DNA of 64,000 bases from a virus, in the IMG/VR virus record IMGVR_UViG_3300045988_147571; one strand, written 5' to 3'. The notes beneath the pieces were generated by a model that worked only from the letters and a program-made list of their open reading frames with translations, ran no database searches and was not told the origin of the DNA. Made by a program: the position numbers and the translations under genes. Shown piece by piece: positions 3,826-44,485 of the stretch (the stretch's first letter is position 1; every line of letters starts with the position of its first letter).

Positions 3826-4377
3826 TTACTCCACCTCTTTCAACTTCTCCACTGCAAGCTTCAATGACTCTACAAATTCATCATTCAACGCTGTACGGTC
3901 TGGATTTTCGATAAATTTTTCAATATCTTCAATTGCTTTTTCTTCAGGTGTAGAAACTGTCACTTTTCCTGTTTTCACAATTTCAATAAGTTCATCAATG
4001 CCATCTTTCCAGTTGCATGTATTACACAAACTACAGTTACACTTAGTGTTCGTGTAGTGCAATACGCATTCTGAACAACCTCCGTTGCAATCGCTTATAT
4101 CTGCAATACGATTAGCAAACTCTCTTGCCGTCATTTCTTTCGTCCCGAGAAGTTCTGAGGCTTCGTAGAAAGCATCACACTCTACTCCGATACGTACGCT
4201 GTGCACCACATCTTTGTTATTACAAAATTTTAAAATATCTGGAAAATGTTGTCCTGGCAATGGCTTACAATTGCCTTTCGAATACCAATGAAATCCCTGT
4301 TTCTCAGCTTCTTTGAGAAGCATTTCATTTTCTTCTTCTGTCTTAACCAAGATACATGTATTTCTTAAATCAACCAT
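3826..4377 (-). CDS. GF[TH]W-domain paralog fused to a Cys-rich C-terminal domain
   Basis: Track ORF 3826..4434. The likely start is ATG 4377 (AAAGGAGG SD inside the upstream gene), giving MVDLRNTCILV...AEKQGFHWYS, parallel to 5737 and 5975. The C-terminal region has CNGGCSEC and CNCSLCNTC. Confidence 0.65.
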   Translation of the reverse strand: MVDLRNTCILVKTEEENEMLLKEAEKQGFHWYSKGNCKPLPGQHFPDILKFCNNKDVVHSVRIGVECDAFYEASELLGTKEMTAREFANRIADISDCNGGCSECVLHYTNTKCNCSLCNTCNWKDGIDELIEIVKTGKVTVSTPEEKAIEDIEKFIENPDRTALNDEFVESLKLAVEKLKEVE

Positions 4378-4621
4378 CTGCGTTTCCTCCTTTAATTTTG
4401 CTAATACAAGTGTTCCAACCTCGAATCCATGCAAGACTAAGTTTACTTCTCCAATATTCCTCTTCTTTCTCCTCCAGCAATGGCTTCAATGGACACCAAT
4501 TAGGGATTACATCATTGTTCGGAACTCTCCTATCATTCATTGCTCTGCACCAAAATCCGCTTATAAATTTACATTTTCCGCAATTCTCTGGTGTGTCAAT
4601 CACTAATACTGATTTACTCAT
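4370..4621 (-). CDS. Small Cys-containing hypothetical protein
   Basis: ORF track. CGKCKF...WCPL. Its stop overlaps the next start (ATGGTTGA). Confidence 0.6.
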   Translation of the reverse strand: MSKSVLVIDTPENCGKCKFISGFWCRAMNDRRVPNNDVIPNWCPLKPLLEEKEEEYWRSKLSLAWIRGWNTCISKIKGGNADG

Positions 4622-4863
4622 TCAACTCCACCACATTTCACGATTTCAATAACCGTCTGATATAGCGCAGCATTTCTTCCAACCAGTTTTGTTATGTATG
4701 TATCCAACTGCTCCACAACTGCTTCCACATCATAGGCGGTCGGCTGCGCATCAATCATTTTAAACGCACTTTCTGCCGTAATTAAACTGTCTTTTCCTCC
4801 AACTTGCTTGTAAAATAACTCTTCATTCATTGCATCCGCATCAATCAGTCTCATATTCCTCAC
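4618..4863 (-). CDS. Hypothetical protein
   Basis: ORF track. The start may be GTG 4863 or ATG 4854. Overlaps its neighbours. Confidence 0.6.
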   Translation of the reverse strand: MRNMRLIDADAMNEELFYKQVGGKDSLITAESAFKMIDAQPTAYDVEAVVEQLDTYITKLVGRNAALYQTVIEIVKCGGVE

Positions 4864-24511: not shown

Positions 24512-26158
24512 ATGATTACAATAGCAAAGCAGAAAAAATGTAAAAGATACTTATTCAAGCTCCACAGTGAACGTCTTCGTAGATCACGCTGGAAGCTAGA
24601 ATATCCATTAGAGGAAGCTCTAAACACAGAAGACATTATTTCTCTGTCTGATAGCCAGATTCTTAGATTCATTGATGAACTCAACGGAGACACCAGTGAA
24701 GCCAGAGAAGAAGAAGCTTCTTATATAAAGAAAGAAATCAAGCGTCTCAAAAAATCTGATTCTTCTAAGAAAGATACTCTCATAGCAAATCTCTATAAAA
24801 GATTCTATAATCTTCAATTTGTTCCAGATTACATGTGCCTGATCATTGATAAAATGTCTGATTATGACAGAGCCAACAAAGGTTTCTCTATCAATGGAGT
24901 CAAATATCATAGGTTCCTAGGTACCAACGGGGGTATAAAAAATTCTACTATTGTTTATGTCTCTGAAAGACTATATCCCCAGCTCTATGAGCGTCTCTGC
25001 TGTGGCAGGAACCTAGAACAAAAATTTGTACCAGCTAAACTTGAAGCATATCAGGCTCTGATCTGTTCTGGCAGCATTCCAGTGAGTATGCCAAAAGGGG
25101 TTATAGTTGTCCCTGACTGCGTTACTCATTTTAAAGAAGACATTATTCGTGTGGATGATTCCCAGTCTGATGAACCAATAGTAGAATTCCTCAAGGACCA
25201 AGAAATAGAGCTTACAGAATCAGACGGTTACGGAATCATGCTTCCATCACTCTCTTACCGCTGGGCTAGAGAACTTGACGAAGAAGAAGATTTTTTATCT
25301 GGCTGTAATCTCAGAGGGCTTCCATGGACAAAGGGCATGGTTTTCACAATGGACTACTTAGCTTTTGGGGAATCTATAGCGAAAAACTTCTATATAAAAG
25401 ATGCCTGGGGAGATATGAGAGACATCAGAGAATCTGAATTGATTATTACTACTTCTATGCTTAAACTATGGGACTCCTACTCTTCTTTCGAAGATTACTG
25501 GTCCAACATAGAAAAATATCATTATCAGATATCTATAGCCAAGACTGCTCCTGCTAAATTGGATGAGTACAGAAGCACTAATTACCAGTTCCTGCAGAAT
25601 TACCATCTTACACCGGAAGAAGTAACTGAATTGGTCCGTCCTACAATAGAAGAAATTCAAGAAATCCTTGGATTAGATTACAGGAAGTCACTCCTATTCC
25701 TGAGAGGAACCAATCTAACAGAAGATTCCTACATTGATGAAGAGCCATATATCAACGCTCTCATGATTGAGCCGCAGATGATTCATGATCCCTACATCAG
25801 AGACAGAATCTACAATATGATAAAGAAAAAAATCAGGCAAGCCAAGATAGGCGTACTCAAAGTGAGAGGTAACTTTGCCATCATTGGTGGTGATCCGTAT
25901 AGCCTGATGCAGAGTATCTTTGGTTTGCCTGTTACAGGACTACTCCACTCTGGAGAATGTTGGCATAAACATTGGCTTGATCGAGGAGTCAGCGAGGTCT
26001 GCTGCTTCAGAGCACCTATGACAAGCAAATACAATGTGCGTAAGCTTAAGATAGTAGGGACTCCTGATATGACTTATTGGTACAGATATATAAATACATG
26101 TATGCTGCTGAATTCCTGGGATTCTACTGCGGAAGCCCTCAACGGCAGCGACAAGGAT
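24512..26158 (+). CDS. YonO/RdRP-like single-subunit RNA polymerase, exon 1
   Basis: FRAPMTSKYNVRKLKIVG...LLNSWDSTAEALNGSDKD. After splicing this reads SDKDGDLYF, a DxDGD metal-binding motif of the double-psi-barrel RNAP/RdRP type. Confidence 0.6.
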
Positions 26159-27149
26159 GAACAATCTCTGTCCTTGTAAAACTGGGTGAACTCGTACATG
26201 CGAGGTGTTTGGCATCAGCCAAGCTAACGGGGGACACTTATGAGTTTTGGTTGGCTTTTAAGCAATCCCGTGCTAAAAGTTATGGAATCTTTCTATATGG
26301 GAAGGAGAACCGAAATGAATGAATTAGTAAATACCACAGAACAGACACCAATAGAGATAGCTCTTGGTGTAGATGCAGATGGAATGACAACTGCTAAACA
26401 ACTTTATAAGTTTTTAGAATTAAATTCTACGAACTATAAACGCTGGACTACAAAGAATATAGTACAAAATCCTTACGGAGAAGAAAATGTTGATTATTTC
26501 CCATTCGTCCTTCATGACGAATGCGGTGGACAAGCTACTACTGATTACAAAATCACAGCAAACTTTGCTAAAAAGCTTTCCATGATGACTTCTTCTCCAA
26601 AAGGAGAAATTGCCAGAGAATATTTTCTTTCCTGTGAAAAAGTCATAAAAGAAAATATTGCTGCGCTAAAGAAGGAAAATCAGAAATTAAAACTGCTCAC
26701 TGTCAGTAAATCCCAGAAATTCTCTGCAATGTATCCTAAATTTGACTTACTGACAAAATCGCTACATATATCTATGAAAGAACTGTACAAGAAAATCTTC
26801 GACACAATGCAGTCTGAGCGTGGCATCGACTTAACAAGCAAGACACTTCAATACTGCTATGAGCATAATCTTTCAAACTGCTACACAATGACAGTTATAC
26901 AGGAAGATCCGCAGCTCTTCATATGTATGTACGAAATAGTTGATGATATGATTGCAAACTTAAAGTGATTTTTTACAAAGGGTTCCATAGCTTATGTGTA
27001 ACGACTATCGAAAGCATAGCTTAAGAGAAAGACTTAAGTGAAGAAGCAAGTAGAGTACTTTATAAGTGTAACTCTTATAGAGGAAGCGCCCAGTAGTATT
27101 ACTTTGGTAATAGAGGTATTACTAATGAGATAGTCTAGTATATAAATTG
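26159..27149 (+). mobile_element. Group I intron in the RNAP gene
   Basis: P1 pairs exon CAAGGAU with 26170..26176 GUCCUUG, with a U-G at the splice site. P10 pairs exon-2 GGAGAU with 26164..26169 AUCUCU. ACGGG/CCCGU with CAAUCCCGUGCUAAA sits at 26263. P7 is GACUA 27004 / UAGUC 27131. The terminal G is at 27149. Confidence 0.8.
26315..26968 (+). CDS. Intron-encoded AntA-like DNA-binding protein (no recognisable nuclease motif)
   Basis: The likely start is ATG 26315, after GGAAGGAGAA. TTAKQLYKFLELNSTNYKRWTTKNIV...ENVDYF...KGEIAREYFLSCEK resembles the AntA/AntB antirepressor N-domain. Confidence 0.5.
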   Translation: MNELVNTTEQTPIEIALGVDADGMTTAKQLYKFLELNSTNYKRWTTKNIVQNPYGEENVDYFPFVLHDECGGQATTDYKITANFAKKLSMMTSSPKGEIAREYFLSCEKVIKENIAALKKENQKLKLLTVSKSQKFSAMYPKFDLLTKSLHISMKELYKKIFDTMQSERGIDLTSKTLQYCYEHNLSNCYTMTVIQEDPQLFICMYEIVDDMIANLK

Positions 27150-28235
27150 GGAGATTTATATTTTACAACCAACAATGAAATACTTTTGAAACATACAGAA
27201 AACTTACCACCAATCTACTGCATTCAGCGCAAAGGAAATAAGGTTGTCCCAACTGAAGCAGATATGATACAAGCTAACAAAGGATCTTTCGGTGATGCCA
27301 TTGGTTCTATTACTAATGTTATTACTTCACAGATATGTCTACAGGCAAGGTTCCCAAAAGACAGTGAGGAATATAAGGTCTTAGACTATAGGATACTGTG
27401 TGGACAAATGTTCCAGCAGAATGCTATTGATCGTGCTAAGGGAATTATTGCCAAACCTATGCCTAAGCACTGGTATGATAACAATTATAATCGCATAGAA
27501 GAATCAGATACACCGGAAGAAATAGCTAAAAAAGAATTCAATCAAAGGATCTGTGCAGATAAGAAGCCATACTTCTTCATCTATAACTACCCTACTCTCA
27601 TGAAGGAATACAAAGACTACATCAAAACTTCAGATGCCGTGAGTAGGTCCAGATTTAATATTCCTCTGGAAACATTGTTAGCTGCTGAAGAATTAACTGA
27701 AGAACAGGCAGAGTTTCTCAAATTCTATAAAGAGTTCTACCCAGTCAATGCAGAAACCTGTGTAGTTAATGAACTCTGTTGGGAAATTGAAAAGCAGCTT
27801 GCAGACGTAAAAGAAAGTAAGGTACCGTTTGACAGCTCTATTCTGAAGTCGGATGCCTCTTATACTGAAAATGAAAAGATGTTCATAGGATATATTTATG
27901 ACAAGTATAACAAAACCTATGCAAACAGAATGAGCCGCCACAGCTCTGTATATGAAGATACTTCTTTAACACCCATTGGGATGACTTTTGAATCAGAGTG
28001 TGCTGAATATGTGCCAAATGCAGAAAAGCTTTGCAACATTCTGGTTGACTTAGGATATAACACAAAAAAGGGTAAGACTTTCGTCTGGGAAATGTCCGGG
28101 GATACCATTATTGATAATCTTCTCTCTCGAACAGATGGTTATGCTCAGTTTCCTGTAAAGGATCCAGACGGTGATATAGAGTTTTGCGGTGAACACTTCT
28201 CAATGAAAAAAGTAAAAATGAAAGGCGAAGAATAA
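27150..28235 (+). CDS. YonO/RdRP-like RNA polymerase, exon 2
   Basis: Begins GDLYFTTNNEIL in frame with exon 1. The TTG start in the ORF track is an artefact of the intron. Confidence 0.6.
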   Translation, partial: GDLYFTTNNEILLKHTENLPPIYCIQRKGNKVVPTEADMIQANKGSFGDAIGSITNVITSQICLQARFPKDSEEYKVLDYRILCGQMFQQNAIDRAKGIIAKPMPKHWYDNNYNRIEESDTPEEIAKKEFNQRICADKKPYFFIYNYPTLMKEYKDYIKTSDAVSRSRFNIPLETLLAAEELTEEQAEFLKFYKEFYPVNAETCVVNELCWEIEKQLADVKESKVPFDSSILKSDASYTENEKMFIGYIYDKYNKTYANRMSRHSSVYEDTSLTPIGMTFESECAEYVPNAEKLCNILVDLGYNTKKGKTFVWEMSGDTIIDNLLSRTDGYAQFPVKDPDGDIEFCGEHFSMKKVKMKGEE

Positions 28236-29098
28236 TGGATTTAATACTCAATGAAAAACAATATGTAGAAAAAATGTTAGAACTTGGTGATTGCAGCCCT
28301 AAAGATTTAGGAGCAAACATAGCTCTTCTAACCAGATATATGTATCAGGAAAAATATACTCAGAAAGAAATTTATAATGGTATAGAAGAATTTGCTTCAA
28401 AAGTAGATTCTGATTTTGATATCAATAACTGGTACTCATTCATAGACAAATGTATCAGTAAAGCTAAGAAGAGAGATCTGTTGAACATTGACTATATACC
28501 TATTACGCAGAAAGAATTAGATACTATCAAGGAAATCAAGAATCCTGCCAGGGAAAGACTTGCATTCACTCTTTTAGTCATTGCCAAGTTTAATAATCTA
28601 AAATCAGAAACCAACAATAACTGGATCAATTATTCTATGGACGTATATTTCAACCTTGCCAGAGTAACTTGTAAAGTAGATGATCGTCCGTACATGATTT
28701 ATGACTTAAAGGAATTGGGGTTAGTTGAAGTGAGTAAAAAAATAACTCGCTTCAATATAAGAATCACATTTGTTGATAATGAGTCTGATCCGGTACTTAA
28801 AATTACAGATATGCGTGAATTGGGCTATCAATATCAGAACTTGGGTCCGAAGTCTAAAATAAAATTGTGTAAGCGCTGCGGGAAGCCTTATAAAGTAAAG
28901 AATTCCAAAGCAAGAAGTGCTTTCTGTTCCGACTGTCAGAGCCAAGTAGAATCAAAACCAAAAGTCATCAAATGTGAATGTTGCGGGAAAGATTTTTTAA
29001 CTTCTCCTTATAACACTCGTGCAACATTGTGTATACAGTGTCATACACTTCAAAGGAATGAATTAAATAAACTTGCCATGCGTAAAAGACGACAGTAA
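28235..29098 (+). CDS. Hypothetical protein with C-terminal double zinc ribbon
   Basis: ORF track. CKRCGK...CSDC and CECCGK...CIQC. Confidence 0.65.
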   Translation: MDLILNEKQYVEKMLELGDCSPKDLGANIALLTRYMYQEKYTQKEIYNGIEEFASKVDSDFDINNWYSFIDKCISKAKKRDLLNIDYIPITQKELDTIKEIKNPARERLAFTLLVIAKFNNLKSETNNNWINYSMDVYFNLARVTCKVDDRPYMIYDLKELGLVEVSKKITRFNIRITFVDNESDPVLKITDMRELGYQYQNLGPKSKIKLCKRCGKPYKVKNSKARSAFCSDCQSQVESKPKVIKCECCGKDFLTSPYNTRATLCIQCHTLQRNELNKLAMRKRRQ

Positions 29099-29258
29099 AA
29101 GACCAACGGTGGGTAGTAGAGGGTTCTTTGTAGGTGTTTGAGGGCGTTTTAGGGGATTTGTGTACAGACCCTCAAAAGTTCAGTCTTCGCAAATGCGCTC
29201 TACAGGCGCGTTTGCGAGATTTCGTTGATTGAGTATATATGAAAGGGAAGATATAAGG

Positions 29259-33152: not shown

Positions 33153-33201
33153 GCAAATAGATATTAAATTACTGACCTGGTGAATTCCAGGTTGGCGATT
33201 T

Positions 33202-33273
33202 GTCCGGTTAGTCTAGTGGTTAAGACACTGCGCTTTCAATGCAGTAACATGGGTTCGATTCCCGTACCGGATG
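33202..33273 (+). tRNA. tRNA-Glu (UUC)
   Basis: Hand-folded cloverleaf: acceptor GTCCGGT/ACCGGAT, D stem GTCT/AGAC, anticodon loop CTTTCAA, T-loop TTCGATT. Confidence 0.85.
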
Positions 33274-33363
33274 TTTGTATATTTGAGAGTTGTGGGTAAT
33301 CTCAAATGTCATTTTCCGTATAGTTGTTTCTTTGGGGAGAACTGGAACTCCCCCTCCTATTTT

Positions 33364-33446
33364 GCAAAGTAAATTCACTAGGTGTGGAACCGACCTGCTA
33401 AGTCGTGTGATCCGACAGGATTGAGTTTCGATTACTCTGCTTTGCG
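33364..33446 (+). tRNA. tRNA-Ser (GCU), type II
   Basis: Acceptor GCAAAGT/GCTTTGC, anticodon loop CTGCTAA, variable arm ATCC-GACA-GGAT, T-loop TTCGATT. The D and anticodon stems are imperfect. Confidence 0.6.
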
Positions 33447-33525
33447 CTAGATAGTCAGATTGGTTCTGGTTGATAATTAGGAAATGGCTGCTGGGCGGCC
33501 TGACAATCTGGAAAGACAGATTAAT

Positions 33526-33609
33526 GTTGCGTGTCCGGCAGGTCGAGGGTGCAGTCTTGAAAACTGTCTGGGTGTAAAAGCCTCTGGGGTTCGAATCCCT
33601 AACGCAACG
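33526..33609 (+). tRNA. tRNA-Ser (UGA), type II
   Basis: Acceptor GTTGCGT/ACGCAAC, anticodon loop CTTGAAA, long variable arm, T-loop TTCGAAT. Confidence 0.65.
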
Positions 33610-33612
33610 TCT

Positions 33613-33694
33613 GGGAGAACGGTAGAGATGGAGATCTACGGCGGTCTGTAAAACCGTTGCAATTGCTTTGAGTGTTCGAATCACTCTTCTCCCA
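33613..33694 (+). tRNA. tRNA-Tyr (GUA), type II
   Basis: Acceptor GGGAGAA/TTCTCCC, D stem GTAG/CTAC with GG loop, anticodon loop CTGTAAA, T arm GAGTG-TTCGAAT-CACTC. Confidence 0.8.
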
Positions 33695-33835
33695 TGAGGT
33701 TGACAAATTAAATCAAAATTCCATAAAACAAAGTAGATAAGTTTTACTATGAGAAGTGCTTGCACTTAGATTAGGTTTATTAAAGGTTTTGTCTCTGATT
33801 GCAACAGATAATGAGCCTTTTGAGTCTACAAATAA

Positions 33836-42164: not shown

Positions 42165-42625
42165 ATGAAACTTAATTTTTCTAGTAATGAAGTAAGAAAC
42201 ATTTTTGCAGAAAATGATTATGCAGAGTACTCCCAGCTTATGTTTGACACAGCTATGGGAGAAGAAAAAGTATCTACAAAAGATGCTAATGACAAGATCA
42301 GAGAGATCATGTTCTCCGTACTTGGTGTAGATGAAAATTGCACTAAGAAAGAGCTTAGAAAAGCTATTCGTAGACATAAAATTGATGTATTTGAAATCAT
42401 CGAGGAAACAGTAGAGAATCTGCTTGTTTCTGGTTGGGGAGAAAACCCATTCTTCAATGAATTCGTAGAGATTAAATCTATGGCTGATGGTGATACTAAT
42501 GAGTTCTATGTACCGGATGAAGTTATTCTGACAGTGTCTGAACTTGCGGGCAATCACCATGATCTGATCAGACAGCGCCTGGCAGAAGGACAGACATTCT
42601 CTGTTAAAACTTCTTGGTATGGGAT
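42165..42625 (+). CDS. Major capsid protein, exon 1
   Basis: Strong SD. Ends ...FSVKTSWYG-I(2 nt). The track ORF reads on into the intron to 42635. Confidence 0.65.
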
Positions 42626-43866
42626 TAACTTTTAGTCCCCTTAACATTGTGAAATGTTTTGAAATAAATAACGCATTGAATTGCTGGAAAACCTTAAAGC
42701 TAGTTAAACTACAACGTAATCTAAAAAGATAAGCGTGAATGTAACGAAAGTAGAAAAAATTAACTAGATGATACATGGTTCAATCCTAAATATCATGAGT
42801 AATTAGACACCTGTTTATAGGTGTTTTTTATTATGCTCAAAAATAGGCAATCAGCAGCTAAGACTTTTTAAAATGAGTAAAGTTCAACGACTATCTGGAG
42901 ACAGAGTACATATACAAGTGTTTGGTATATGGAAGTGGTGCGCACCCTCGATGGGTGAAGATATAGTCTAATCTTTAGCGAAAGTTAAAGGGCTTTAAGC
43001 CAACACGGAGTAGCGTCCGATTAATATCATTTTTCAAAATAATTATATAAGGAACTATGAATGCAAGAAAAATTATGTGGTATTTATTGTATAAAAAATA
43101 CTTTAAATAACAAAAAATATATTGGTATGTCAAGAGATATAAAACGAAGATGGTCCGAGCATAGAACAGAATTAAATAGCCACACTCATGTTAATCAATA
43201 TTTACAATCTGCATGGGATAAGTATGGTAAATCAAATTTTAAGTTCTATGTTATTGAGTTATGTGAAGAAGAAAAACTTAGTGAACGTGAATGTTATTAC
43301 ATACAATTATATAAATCTTTATCTCATGAAAATGGATACAATTTAACAACTGGTGGTGAAAATACATCTATTGGTAAATCTGTTATATATTTGAAAGATG
43401 GAACGATTTATAACTATGTAAACGAAGCTGCTCAAGAAGCTAATGTTCAGTCCGTAACTATGATTAGTTGGTGCCGCAAGAAACATAACTATATGTATTT
43501 AGATGAATATAACACTCTTTCTAAAACAGAAAAAGAATACTGGAAAAATTTTAATTGGGAAGAATTTGACCATCAAAAATTAAGTCAAGCACATTCTCGT
43601 GAAAATCTCTCAAGGGTCACAATAAACAAATTAAGTCAAGCTACATCTGGAGATAATAATCCAAGAGCACTTAAAGTTTATTGCCCACAGCTAGATGAAA
43701 CATTTGATTGTATAAAATATGCCTCTGACAAATATGGAGTTAATAGAAGTAGCATATCTTCGTGTCTTAAAGGAAGACTTAAAAGTGCCGGTAAGCATCC
43801 CGTTACCGGAGAAAAACTAACATGGGAAACAGTTGAAAAATGATATTGAATTGTTAAATATAAATG
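42626..43866 (+). mobile_element. Group I intron in the major capsid gene
   Basis: P1 pairs exon GGGAU with 42635..42639 GUCCC (U-G at the splice site). P10 pairs exon-2 UAAAA with 42630..42634 UUUUA. P7 is GACUA 42889 / AGAUAUAGUC 42959..42968. The terminal G is at 43866. The spliced frame reads WYGIKIYAEYELFMAGRIDW. Confidence 0.8.
43061..43843 (+). CDS. Intron-encoded GIY-YIG homing endonuclease
   Basis: CGIYCIKNTLNNKKYIGMSRDIKRRWSEHR...YYI...GYN, plus C-terminal DNA-binding repeats. Confidence 0.8.
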   Translation: MQEKLCGIYCIKNTLNNKKYIGMSRDIKRRWSEHRTELNSHTHVNQYLQSAWDKYGKSNFKFYVIELCEEEKLSERECYYIQLYKSLSHENGYNLTTGGENTSIGKSVIYLKDGTIYNYVNEAAQEANVQSVTMISWCRKKHNYMYLDEYNTLSKTEKEYWKNFNWEEFDHQKLSQAHSRENLSRVTINKLSQATSGDNNPRALKVYCPQLDETFDCIKYASDKYGVNRSSISSCLKGRLKSAGKHPVTGEKLTWETVEK

Positions 43867-44485
43867 TAAAATTTACGCAGAATATGAGCTGTTTATGGCA
43901 GGTCGTATTGACTGGGCTGGATTTGTACAGAAAATCTATGAAGCCTTTGATAAGAAAATCAACGATATGGTATATGCAGCTGTAATGGCAGCAGGTGAGA
44001 AGGTTCTCCCGTCTACACAGTTTAATAAGACAGGTACACTTTCATCAACAACAAAAGATGAGTTTATGACTCTGATTGAAGATGTACAGATGGCTACAGG
44101 TGATGAAGTAGTTGTTATGGGTACCAAATCTGCTCTTGCAAAACTTTCTGCTATGGAAGATATCACTTGGGTATCTAATGAGATGAAAAACGAAAGACAT
44201 ACTACAGGTCGTTTAGGTCTGTTTGAAGGTATTCGTCTTGTTGAAATTCCTCAGAGATTTGCAAATAATGATACAACTACTAAGTTAGTAGATAATACTA
44301 AGCTTTTGATTATGCCAGTAGCTGATAATAAATTTATCAAGATCTACAATGAAGGCGACGCTCAGATTAAAGAAGTATCTGATGGAAATACAAATATGGA
44401 TAAAACTATTGAGTATGAATATCAGCTTAAAATGGGTGTAGCTACAATTATTGGTAAACGATTTGGAGTTTGGACACTCAAATAA
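43867..44485 (+). CDS. Major capsid protein, exon 2
   Basis: The frame is open from 43850. Exons 1 and 2 total 1080 nt, an in-frame 359 aa. A strong hairpin follows. Confidence 0.65.

Follow-up and report, generated by a model that had tools for sequence, protein, structure and literature searches.

A Probable Group I Intron with an AntA-Like Open Reading Frame in the DxDGD Codons of a Viral YonO-Family RNA Polymerase Gene

Here, we report that the gene for a YonO-family single-subunit, two-barrel RNA polymerase in IMG/VR virus record IMGVR_UViG_3300045988_147571 is very probably interrupted by a group I (IA-type) intron, which lies at positions 26159..27149 between the second Asp and the Gly codons of the DxDGD Mg2+-binding loop. 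The DNA analyzed was one strand of 64,000 nucleotides (nt) from this record (the window; positions are counted from its first letter). The element is a familiar type of mobile intron in a new host gene, with an open reading frame (ORF) for an AntA-like protein in place of a recognizable homing nuclease.

The Interrupted Polymerase Gene

Two ORFs on the same strand, 24512..26179 (555 amino acids [aa]) and the TTG-started 27147..28235, are separated by about 1 kb that holds a third ORF. An earlier note on this DNA, made from its letters alone, had taken the outer two as halves of one protein that reads SDKDGDLYF when joined, and had likened that protein to YonO and RNA-dependent RNA polymerases (RdRP); these claims held when the joined protein was compared with intact relatives, intron-less alleles, and known folds. 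The last in-frame codon of exon 1 is GAT at 26156-26158, a codon boundary that closes ...ALNGSDKD, and after G27149 the sequence continues GGA GAT TTA TAT (GDLY). With 24512..26158 joined to 27150..28235, the product is a 910-aa protein that reads ...NGSDKDGDLYF... across the junction. Read without splicing, the frame runs 6 codons past exon 1 to a stop at 26177-26179. Exon 2 has neither an ATG nor a Shine-Dalgarno sequence or other ribosome-binding site, its sole possible start being a TTG that overlaps the last intron bases.

The joined protein was searched with tblastn against GenBank phages, which returned 39 records, including intact genes of Enterocloster phage PMBT24 (annotated as an RNA-dependent RNA polymerase) and Bacillus phage BUCT082. 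Matches to yonO of SPbeta and its relatives covered query residues 119-608 at an expect value (E) of about 1e-19 (1e-19 to 1e-25 over the tblastn searches made); these alignments, like those to PMBT24 and BUCT082, cross the 549/550 junction. Megablast of the locus against GenBank phages gave no match, so there is no close sequenced relative among them. A metagenome protein search found more than 4000 relatives, one of which is uninterrupted and 92% identical (P0001; 900 aa). Aligned intact relatives read ALNG[AS]D[KC]D-GDL[YMF]F without a gap at the junction, where intact proteins such as P0021 and P0023 show ALNGSDKDGDLYY. Near-identical genes in IMG/VR (92-97% aa identity) occur in two states, insert-free and 2.73 kb long (loci L009-L014) or with the insert and 3.72 kb long (L015-L033). 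The insert-free DNA reads ...GCCGACTGCGAT/GGAGATTTA... (also given as ...GCCGACTGCGAT/GGAGATTTAATG...) and is unbroken exactly at 26158/27150. Exon-1 proteins 97-98% identical to that of the window, with the same 555-aa read-through end, were present in many independent assemblies (P0003, P0004, P0010, and P0015).

In public records, each exon half of a YonO-like gene is listed as a hypothetical protein of its own, with the introns unannotated (Clostridium phage c-st; Enterocloster phages CB457P and CB473P). In c-st (L001), one of the halves CST179 and CST178 is named "YonO-homolog (N-ter only)" and the other hypothetical protein, and BFVD holds such halves as separate entries (A0A8S5SEF1 and A0A8S5PL59).

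Homology to polymerases emerged only from tblastn, precomputed Pfam assignments on homologues, and comparison of folds; when the window protein alone was searched by sequence against the PDB (phmmer and profile) and Pfam, nothing useful was returned. Many homologues carry a precomputed PF05183 (RdRP) assignment. The DKDGD formed on joining aligns with FDNDGD of YonO, and D547, D549, and D551 are invariant in 28 homologues, as is the upstream FRAPM motif (F499, R500, A501, and P502). The Asp triad of YonO is essential for catalysis (PMC5467207), and QDE-1 has DYDGD at the equivalent place (PMC2919709). An AlphaFold2 model of the 910-aa protein, built on the homologue alignment (predicted local distance difference test [pLDDT], 88.3; predicted template modeling score, 0.81), was compared with the PDB using Foldseek. 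The best matches were maize and Arabidopsis RDR2 and Neurospora QDE-1 (E, 6e-16 to 2e-11; probability, 1.0), followed by the Thermus-phage P74 gp62 and P32 gp64 RNA polymerases (about 2e-4) and then, non-significantly, by bacterial beta'. The top BFVD matches were two phage entries named "RNA-dependent RNA polymerase", one of 563 aa (E, 6.5e-39) and one of 1048 aa (5.0e-32), with an uncharacterized phage protein of 382 aa third (3.6e-17); the 382-aa entry and the 563-aa one appear to be halves that were annotated on their own. The identity of the 910-aa product as a YonO/QDE-1-type two-barrel RNA polymerase is supported by these results. The product would presumably be enzymatically active and, by analogy with SPbeta YonO, may carry out DNA-dependent RNA synthesis and late-gene transcription (PMC5467207).

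Intron RNA and Its Relatives

Core helices P3, P4, P6, P7, and P8 are all present in the window copy, in canonical order and with the P3/P7 pseudoknot topology (Table 1). The earlier note had based its group I assignment on a 7-bp P1 with a U-G pair at the splice site, an adjacent 6-bp P10, an ACGGG segment, a GACUA/UAGUC P7, and a terminal G at 27149. Each was recovered, the ACGGG segment as one strand of P4 and P7 in the extended form GACUAUC/GAUAGUC, and the assignment itself is borne out by covariation and by ORF-less members of the same 3'-core family, which score 62-94 bits against Rfam Intron_gpI. We call the intron IA-like on the strength of P7.1 and P7.2 and of its likeness to the td and Twort introns, which is not a formal classification; the likeness to these two in detail is presumed.

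Table 1. Coordinates of the polymerase exons, the intron, and its parts in the window
Feature	Position	Strand	Details
Exon 1, YonO-like RNA polymerase gene	24512..26158	+	549 codons; ends ...NGSDKD (first two Asp of DxDGD); matches PHROG 25339 and 8308
P1 exon strand CAAGGAU	26152..26158	+	U26158·G26170 wobble at 5' splice site
Group I intron (probable)	26159..27149	+	991 nt; IA-like (P7.1 and P7.2); lacks P2 and P9 hairpins of close relatives
P10 intron strand AUCUCU	26164..26169	+	Pairs with GGAGAU 27150-27155, 6/6 including one G·U
Internal guide sequence GUCCUUG (P1 intron strand)	26170..26176	+	7/7 with CAAGGAU, 8 if extended
P3 5' strand CUGGGUG	26182..26188	+	Pairs with CGCCCAG 27087-27093, 7/7
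Two hairpins, P3 5' strand to J3/4	26191..26222	+	CUCG/CGAG 26191-26204; UUGGC/GCCAA 26209-26222; flanked by conserved GUGAAC and GGUGU
P4 ACGGG/CCCGU	26227..26271	+	26227-26231 with 26267-26271; encloses P5 (26237-26244/26255-26262, 7/8 pairs)
P6	26279..26991	+	11-bp stem 26279-26289/26981-26991; ORF inside loop (~690 nt)
Intron ORF	26315..26968	+	217 aa; Shine-Dalgarno AAGGAG 26302-26307; N-terminal part AntA/AntB-type, C-terminal part all-helical
3' half of catalytic core	27003..27135	+	P7 GACUA(UC) 27003-27009 with (GA)UAGUC 27129-27135; P7.1 27019-27039; P7.2 27058-27082; P3 3' strand 27087-27093; P8 27094-27124
Terminal G (omega G)	27149	+	3' splice site
Exon 2	27150..28235	+	361 codons and stop; begins GDLYF (Gly and third Asp of DxDGD); matches PHROG 35857

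Helix tables for P1, P3, and P4 were compiled with our own scripts from 10-15 introns, which are not phylogenetically independent. P1 changes with the exon codon among relatives (CAAGGAU/GUCCUUG versus GUGAU/GUCAC): exons ending ...GACAAGGAU go with the intron guide GUCCUUG, and those ending ...GAUUGUGAU with GUCAC. P10 is shorter in relatives (4-5 bp). The homologous P3 7-mers are fully complementary in 13 of 15 related introns while taking nine different sequences; an alternative P3, GGUGU/GCGCC, fails in L090 and L091 and was rejected in favor of CUGGGUG/CGCCCAG. All P4 variants (ACGGG/CCCGU, ACAGU/ACUGU, ACAGG/CCUGU, and ACGGU/ACCGU) are complementary, and P7 GACUA/UAGUC is invariant save in one intron, which has the double compensatory change GAGCA/UGCUC. 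Both hairpin stems between P3 and J3/4 covary, and stems equivalent to P6 flank the intron ORF in L089, L090, L091, and L007. In a 32-sequence alignment of the 3' halves, P7.1, P7.2, and P8 were 92% paired, compared with 65% for column shuffles (0 of 500 reached the observed value) and 33-44% when the partners were slid, and both sides have changed in 27 of the 34 pairs of these helices. All ten introns examined at the insertion site end in G.

The 19-mer AACGACTATCGAAAGCATA (27000-27018) is common to at least 120 IMG/VR viral-contig stretches. A sample of these loci contained 13 intron matches to Intron_gpI at 50-94 bits, the full-length ones at 62-94 bits. An intein was rejected on account of stops in the exon frame of the insert, and a group II intron because no group II model matched.

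The window intron falls in a sub-lineage (L162, L090, L189, L153, L004, and others) with two hairpins and the GUGAAC and GGUGU motifs (26182..26231 in the window). The Rfam model (RF00028) misaligns P3 of this sub-lineage, and a member at a second site in the L090 gene was missed at the gathering threshold.

From these pairings, splicing can be proposed as follows. The polymerase gene would be transcribed as a single unit, and the intron RNA would fold into P3-P8, P4-P6, and P7. Free guanosine would attack after U26158, presented by the U·G pair of P1, and the released 3'-OH would then attack after G27149, with alignment by P10. The ligated exons would read ...GACAAGGAU joined to GGAGAUUUA, an mRNA for the 910-aa polymerase with its DKDGD triad intact. 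Unspliced RNA would yield only the 555-aa fragment, which lacks the third Asp, so production of the polymerase would depend on splicing.

Insertion Site and Intron ORF

The junction between the second D codon and the G codon (DxD/GD) is a population-level intron hot spot, and every intron-containing homologue examined is broken there. The earlier note had seen a homing-site signature in the choice of codons; the site proves to hold at least three intron types in other phages, some with HNH genes, and to be empty in close relatives. An AntA-type ORF sits in P6 in the window, L089, L090, L091, L214, and L215. Essentially the same RNA core carries an HNH endonuclease gene in the P5 loop in L015-L033, and MT835481 (L007) has an HNH gene in P6. 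ORF-less or decayed versions occupy the site in Enterocloster phages CB473P3 and CB457P1, and in Clostridium phage c-st the occupant is an intron of 317 nt whose 5' half is different and of the classical form (Rfam, 25.4 bits; E, 1.5e-4).

A second intron hot spot, at about residue 643 of the spliced product (near 27430), holds no intron in the window and is occupied in L002 (2073-3195), L004 (3060-3524), L008 (2558-3055), and L090 (2513-2795). These second-site introns, from Enterocloster phages and a metagenome contig, are related group I introns, some with an HNH/AP2-type ORF and one ORF-less with P7 GAGCA/UGCUC.

Compared with intron-less or HNH-intron relatives, the window's exons are 97-99% identical at the 5' end and 82-86% identical near the insertion site; against L089, whose intron is of the same type, the figure there climbs to 91%. 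Such a pattern would be expected if flanking exon had been co-converted with the intron.

The intron ORF, absent from the earlier note, likely starts at ATG 26315. It matches Pfam PF08346 over residues 52-117 of a 242-aa reading (E, 1e-13; 52.1 bits; cut-off, 27), its PHROG matches are to anti-repressor families only, and its N-terminal 125 aa are 55-65% identical to many prophage AntA antirepressors (1301 homologues found). These 125 aa make the protein a clear member of the AntA/AntB phage antirepressor family; it differs from the family in lying inside a group I intron, in lacking the usual C-terminal partner domains such as PF10552, and in having a C-terminal domain common to a small protein set only. 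In the AlphaFold2 model (pLDDT, 82), the C-terminal half is confident (>90) and all-helical. This domain had no family match, and its PDB profile search returned noise; Foldseek found no significant neighbor of the model (best E, 0.076, to DNA-binding or winged-helix proteins). No nuclease domain or motif was found by Pfam, PHROGs, PDB profile, or Foldseek searches, in which the LAGLIDADG, GIY-YIG, HNH, His-Cys box, PD-(D/E)xK, and EDxHD families were considered.

Across about 215 fetched loci (>100 related introns), AntA-type ORFs were found in introns at the DxD/GD site only; the other homologues (L212 and L213) are free-standing, in prophage-like contexts with no intron motifs. ORF copies from these introns, 46-70% identical to that of the window, differ with a nonsynonymous proportion (pN) of 0.17-0.35 and a saturated synonymous proportion, values by which the ORF is judged to be under purifying selection. 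On a 188-kb metagenome scaffold (L214, 4001..4483), the ORF is truncated to 160 aa, consistent with ORF decay in some intron copies. Between the window and L089 (ORF at 4001..4648), the RNA cores are near-identical and the exon protein is 96% identical, whereas identity between the ORFs drops to 70%, most of the differences falling in the AntA domain (pN, 0.24, versus 0.08 in the C-terminal domain). This suggests that the ORF or its N-terminal domain was swapped by recombination independently of the intron.

Candidate roles for the ORF are cargo, intron mobility, and help with splicing, and a passenger derived from a prophage antirepressor is the most economical reading. We consider the chances about even that it is cargo that entered the P6 loop from free-standing prophage antirepressor-like genes and has no mobility role, the intron spreading by ordinary recombination or by a nuclease acting in trans. 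Free-standing two-domain homologues occur in prophage-like contexts without intron motifs (P0138 and P0150), the N-terminal domain is close to ordinary AntA antirepressors, no nuclease fold or motif was found in the searches above, and trans-homing of a T4 intron with a defunct endonuclease is documented (PMC2790892). Purifying selection across the intron copies and exon flanks that travel with intron type speak against mere cargo, as does the restriction of the ORF to introns at one site, a distribution expected of a site-specific mobility protein but also of vertical descent. Appreciably less likely, in our judgment, is that the AntA-like protein is a new intron-encoded factor, either a site-specific DNA binder that drives or directs mobility into the DxDGD site (through an unrecognized nuclease or recruitment) or a regulator coupled to splicing of the polymerase message. 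If true, one more class of protein would join the few that group I introns are known to encode. Of the elements described here, only the conserved antirepressor-like ORF is left unexplained by current knowledge.

Competing Readings and Known Systems

Several points weigh against a functional group I intron at 26159..27149. Rfam at the gathering threshold did not call the intron in the window, and a focused scan gave only a partial match (27025-27159; 14.3 bits; E, 0.96), below the curated RF00028 threshold of 50 bits. The two hairpins between P3 and J3/4 depart from the Rfam consensus architecture. The P2 and P9 tetraloop hairpins are absent from the window copy and L089 and are kept in sister introns L091 and L015, and this absence could weaken folding. 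The ORF is not recognizable as a homing endonuclease, which leaves autonomous mobility unexplained and the route of mobility one that we infer; splicing at 26158/27150 is likewise predicted from sequence.

An Intron_gpI scan, proposed as a check in the earlier note, failed on the window copy and succeeded on relatives, among them the sampled loci above and ORF-less L162, which shares the 5' layout of the window intron (49.6 bits; E, 9e-12). At the gathering threshold, every intron at the DxD/GD site was missed in the window and five related loci, the Rfam signal at this site coming from small-region E-value scans or ORF-less relatives only. The low score of the window copy is explained by the ORF-bearing P6 loop of about 690 nt, which splits the core, and by the unusual layout of the 5' half; the failed threshold is a limit of the model on this copy and no evidence against the fold.

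The poor Rfam score, the P2 and P9 hairpins missing relative to sister introns, and truncated ORF copies elsewhere (e.g., the 160-aa copy in L214) would also suit a decayed, splicing-dead intron in a polymerase pseudogene. We regard this as highly improbable. Both exons are intact and in frame, each core helix is intact in the window, and the 97-98% identical exon-1 proteins recur with the same 555-aa end in many independent assemblies. L089, which also lacks P2 and P9, retains its core helices by compensation (e.g., P7.1 CUUAAG/CUUAAG versus UCCAAG/CUUGGA), and, by analogy with SPbeta, a YonO-type RNA polymerase would be needed for late genes (PMC5467207). Least credible of all is that there is no intron and that an antirepressor cassette divides the gene into two polypeptides that assemble as a split enzyme, like the split beta/beta' of jumbo phages: phages with split RNA polymerase subunits exist (PMC2919709), and public annotation lists halves separately (c-st CST179 and CST178, the CB457P phages, and the 563-aa BFVD entry), but the break would fall inside a five-residue metal-binding loop, exon 2 lacks any start other than the overlapping TTG, the ORF is flanked by conserved, covarying group I helices, and the same RNA is found at this site in ORF-less and HNH-carrying forms.

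Elsewhere in the window, a second group I intron was detected (Rfam Intron_gpI, 71.3 bits, 42617..42990), with a GIY-YIG homing-endonuclease ORF (43061..43843) after it. The gene that this intron interrupts is in the late region (42165..44485); ORFs 42165..42635 and 43895..44485 match the two halves of phrog_4088. A three-tRNA cluster (Glu-TTC, Ser-TGA, and Tyr-GTA) lies at 33201..33695. The polymerase stop codon is overlapped (TAATG) by 28235..29098, which encodes a 287-aa protein with double zinc-ribbon-like motifs. A conserved counterpart lies immediately 3' of the YonO-like gene in c-st (CST177), BUCT082, and PMBT24 (E, 1e-16 to 1e-22), and the protein may be a polymerase partner; its similarity to the YonO C terminus is non-significant (E, 0.18), despite the c-st annotation. 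Promoter and terminator scans of the region were at chance level, except for a terminator-like hairpin at 29186-29218, after the zinc-ribbon gene.

With a group I intron as the preferred reading, what annotations of gut and clostridial phages often give as two or three unrelated "hypothetical proteins" (c-st, CB457P/CB473P, and BFVD) is actually one YonO-type polymerase gene broken by introns. Introns in such genes slip under the Rfam threshold, and knowing the DxD/GD and residue-643 sites fixes the annotations.

The window protein shares the two-barrel fold, the R-x-P motif, and the DxDGD triad with SPbeta YonO (a single-subunit DNA-dependent RNA polymerase; PMC5467207), QDE-1, and RDR2. Homology to YonO covers residues 119-656 at only about 26% identity, and the genome context of SPbeta-like phages resembles that of the window. 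yonO itself is intron-free, whereas the window gene is interrupted, and, unlike SPbeta YonO, the polymerase gene in the window's clade always has the separate zinc-ribbon gene on its 3' side.

It is a classical finding that group I introns of phages sit in conserved codons of essential genes. With the present case, the rule that they choose the most constrained codons reaches a third type of phage RNA polymerase. Phage IA2-type introns (T4 td and nrdB, Twort orf142, SPbeta bnrdE/F, and the cyanophage Pf-WMP3 DNA polymerase intron; PMC3428280) share with the window intron a P7.1/P7.2 core, the conserved ...AACGACUA... and ...GAUAUAGUCU motifs, a peripheral loop that holds an ORF (P6, as in td), placement in highly conserved codons of an essential phage gene, and presence/absence polymorphism among relatives. 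The window intron differs from them in its host gene, a YonO-type RNA polymerase, in the two hairpins from the P3 5' strand to J3/4, in the missing P2 and P9, and in an AntA-like ORF where they have GIY-YIG, HNH, or other known endonucleases. Literature searches of incomplete coverage turned up neither an intron in a YonO-type polymerase gene nor a group I intron with an AntA-type ORF, which is no more than absence of evidence.

A mobile intron in a jumbo-phage RNA polymerase beta-like gene was noted in 2010 (PMC2919709), and the PhiPA3 gp210 intron, whose product is a proven HNH nicking endonuclease, acts in phage-phage competition (PMC11620839). Like the window intron, it interrupts a phage RNA polymerase gene beside conserved catalytic Asp codons, and its target is the intron-less homologous site in a related phage. 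The PhiPA3 polymerase is a multi-subunit enzyme with the site in its virion beta-like subunit, whereas the window gene encodes a single chain with a beta'-type DxDGD triad; the window ORF, unlike gp210, has no nuclease signature, and HNH sister introns exist at the window's site (L015 and L007). That one site, found empty or with HNH-carrying, AntA-carrying, ORF-less, or unrelated introns, provides a natural series suited to the study of intron turnover and of phage-phage competition such as that of PhiPA3 gp210.

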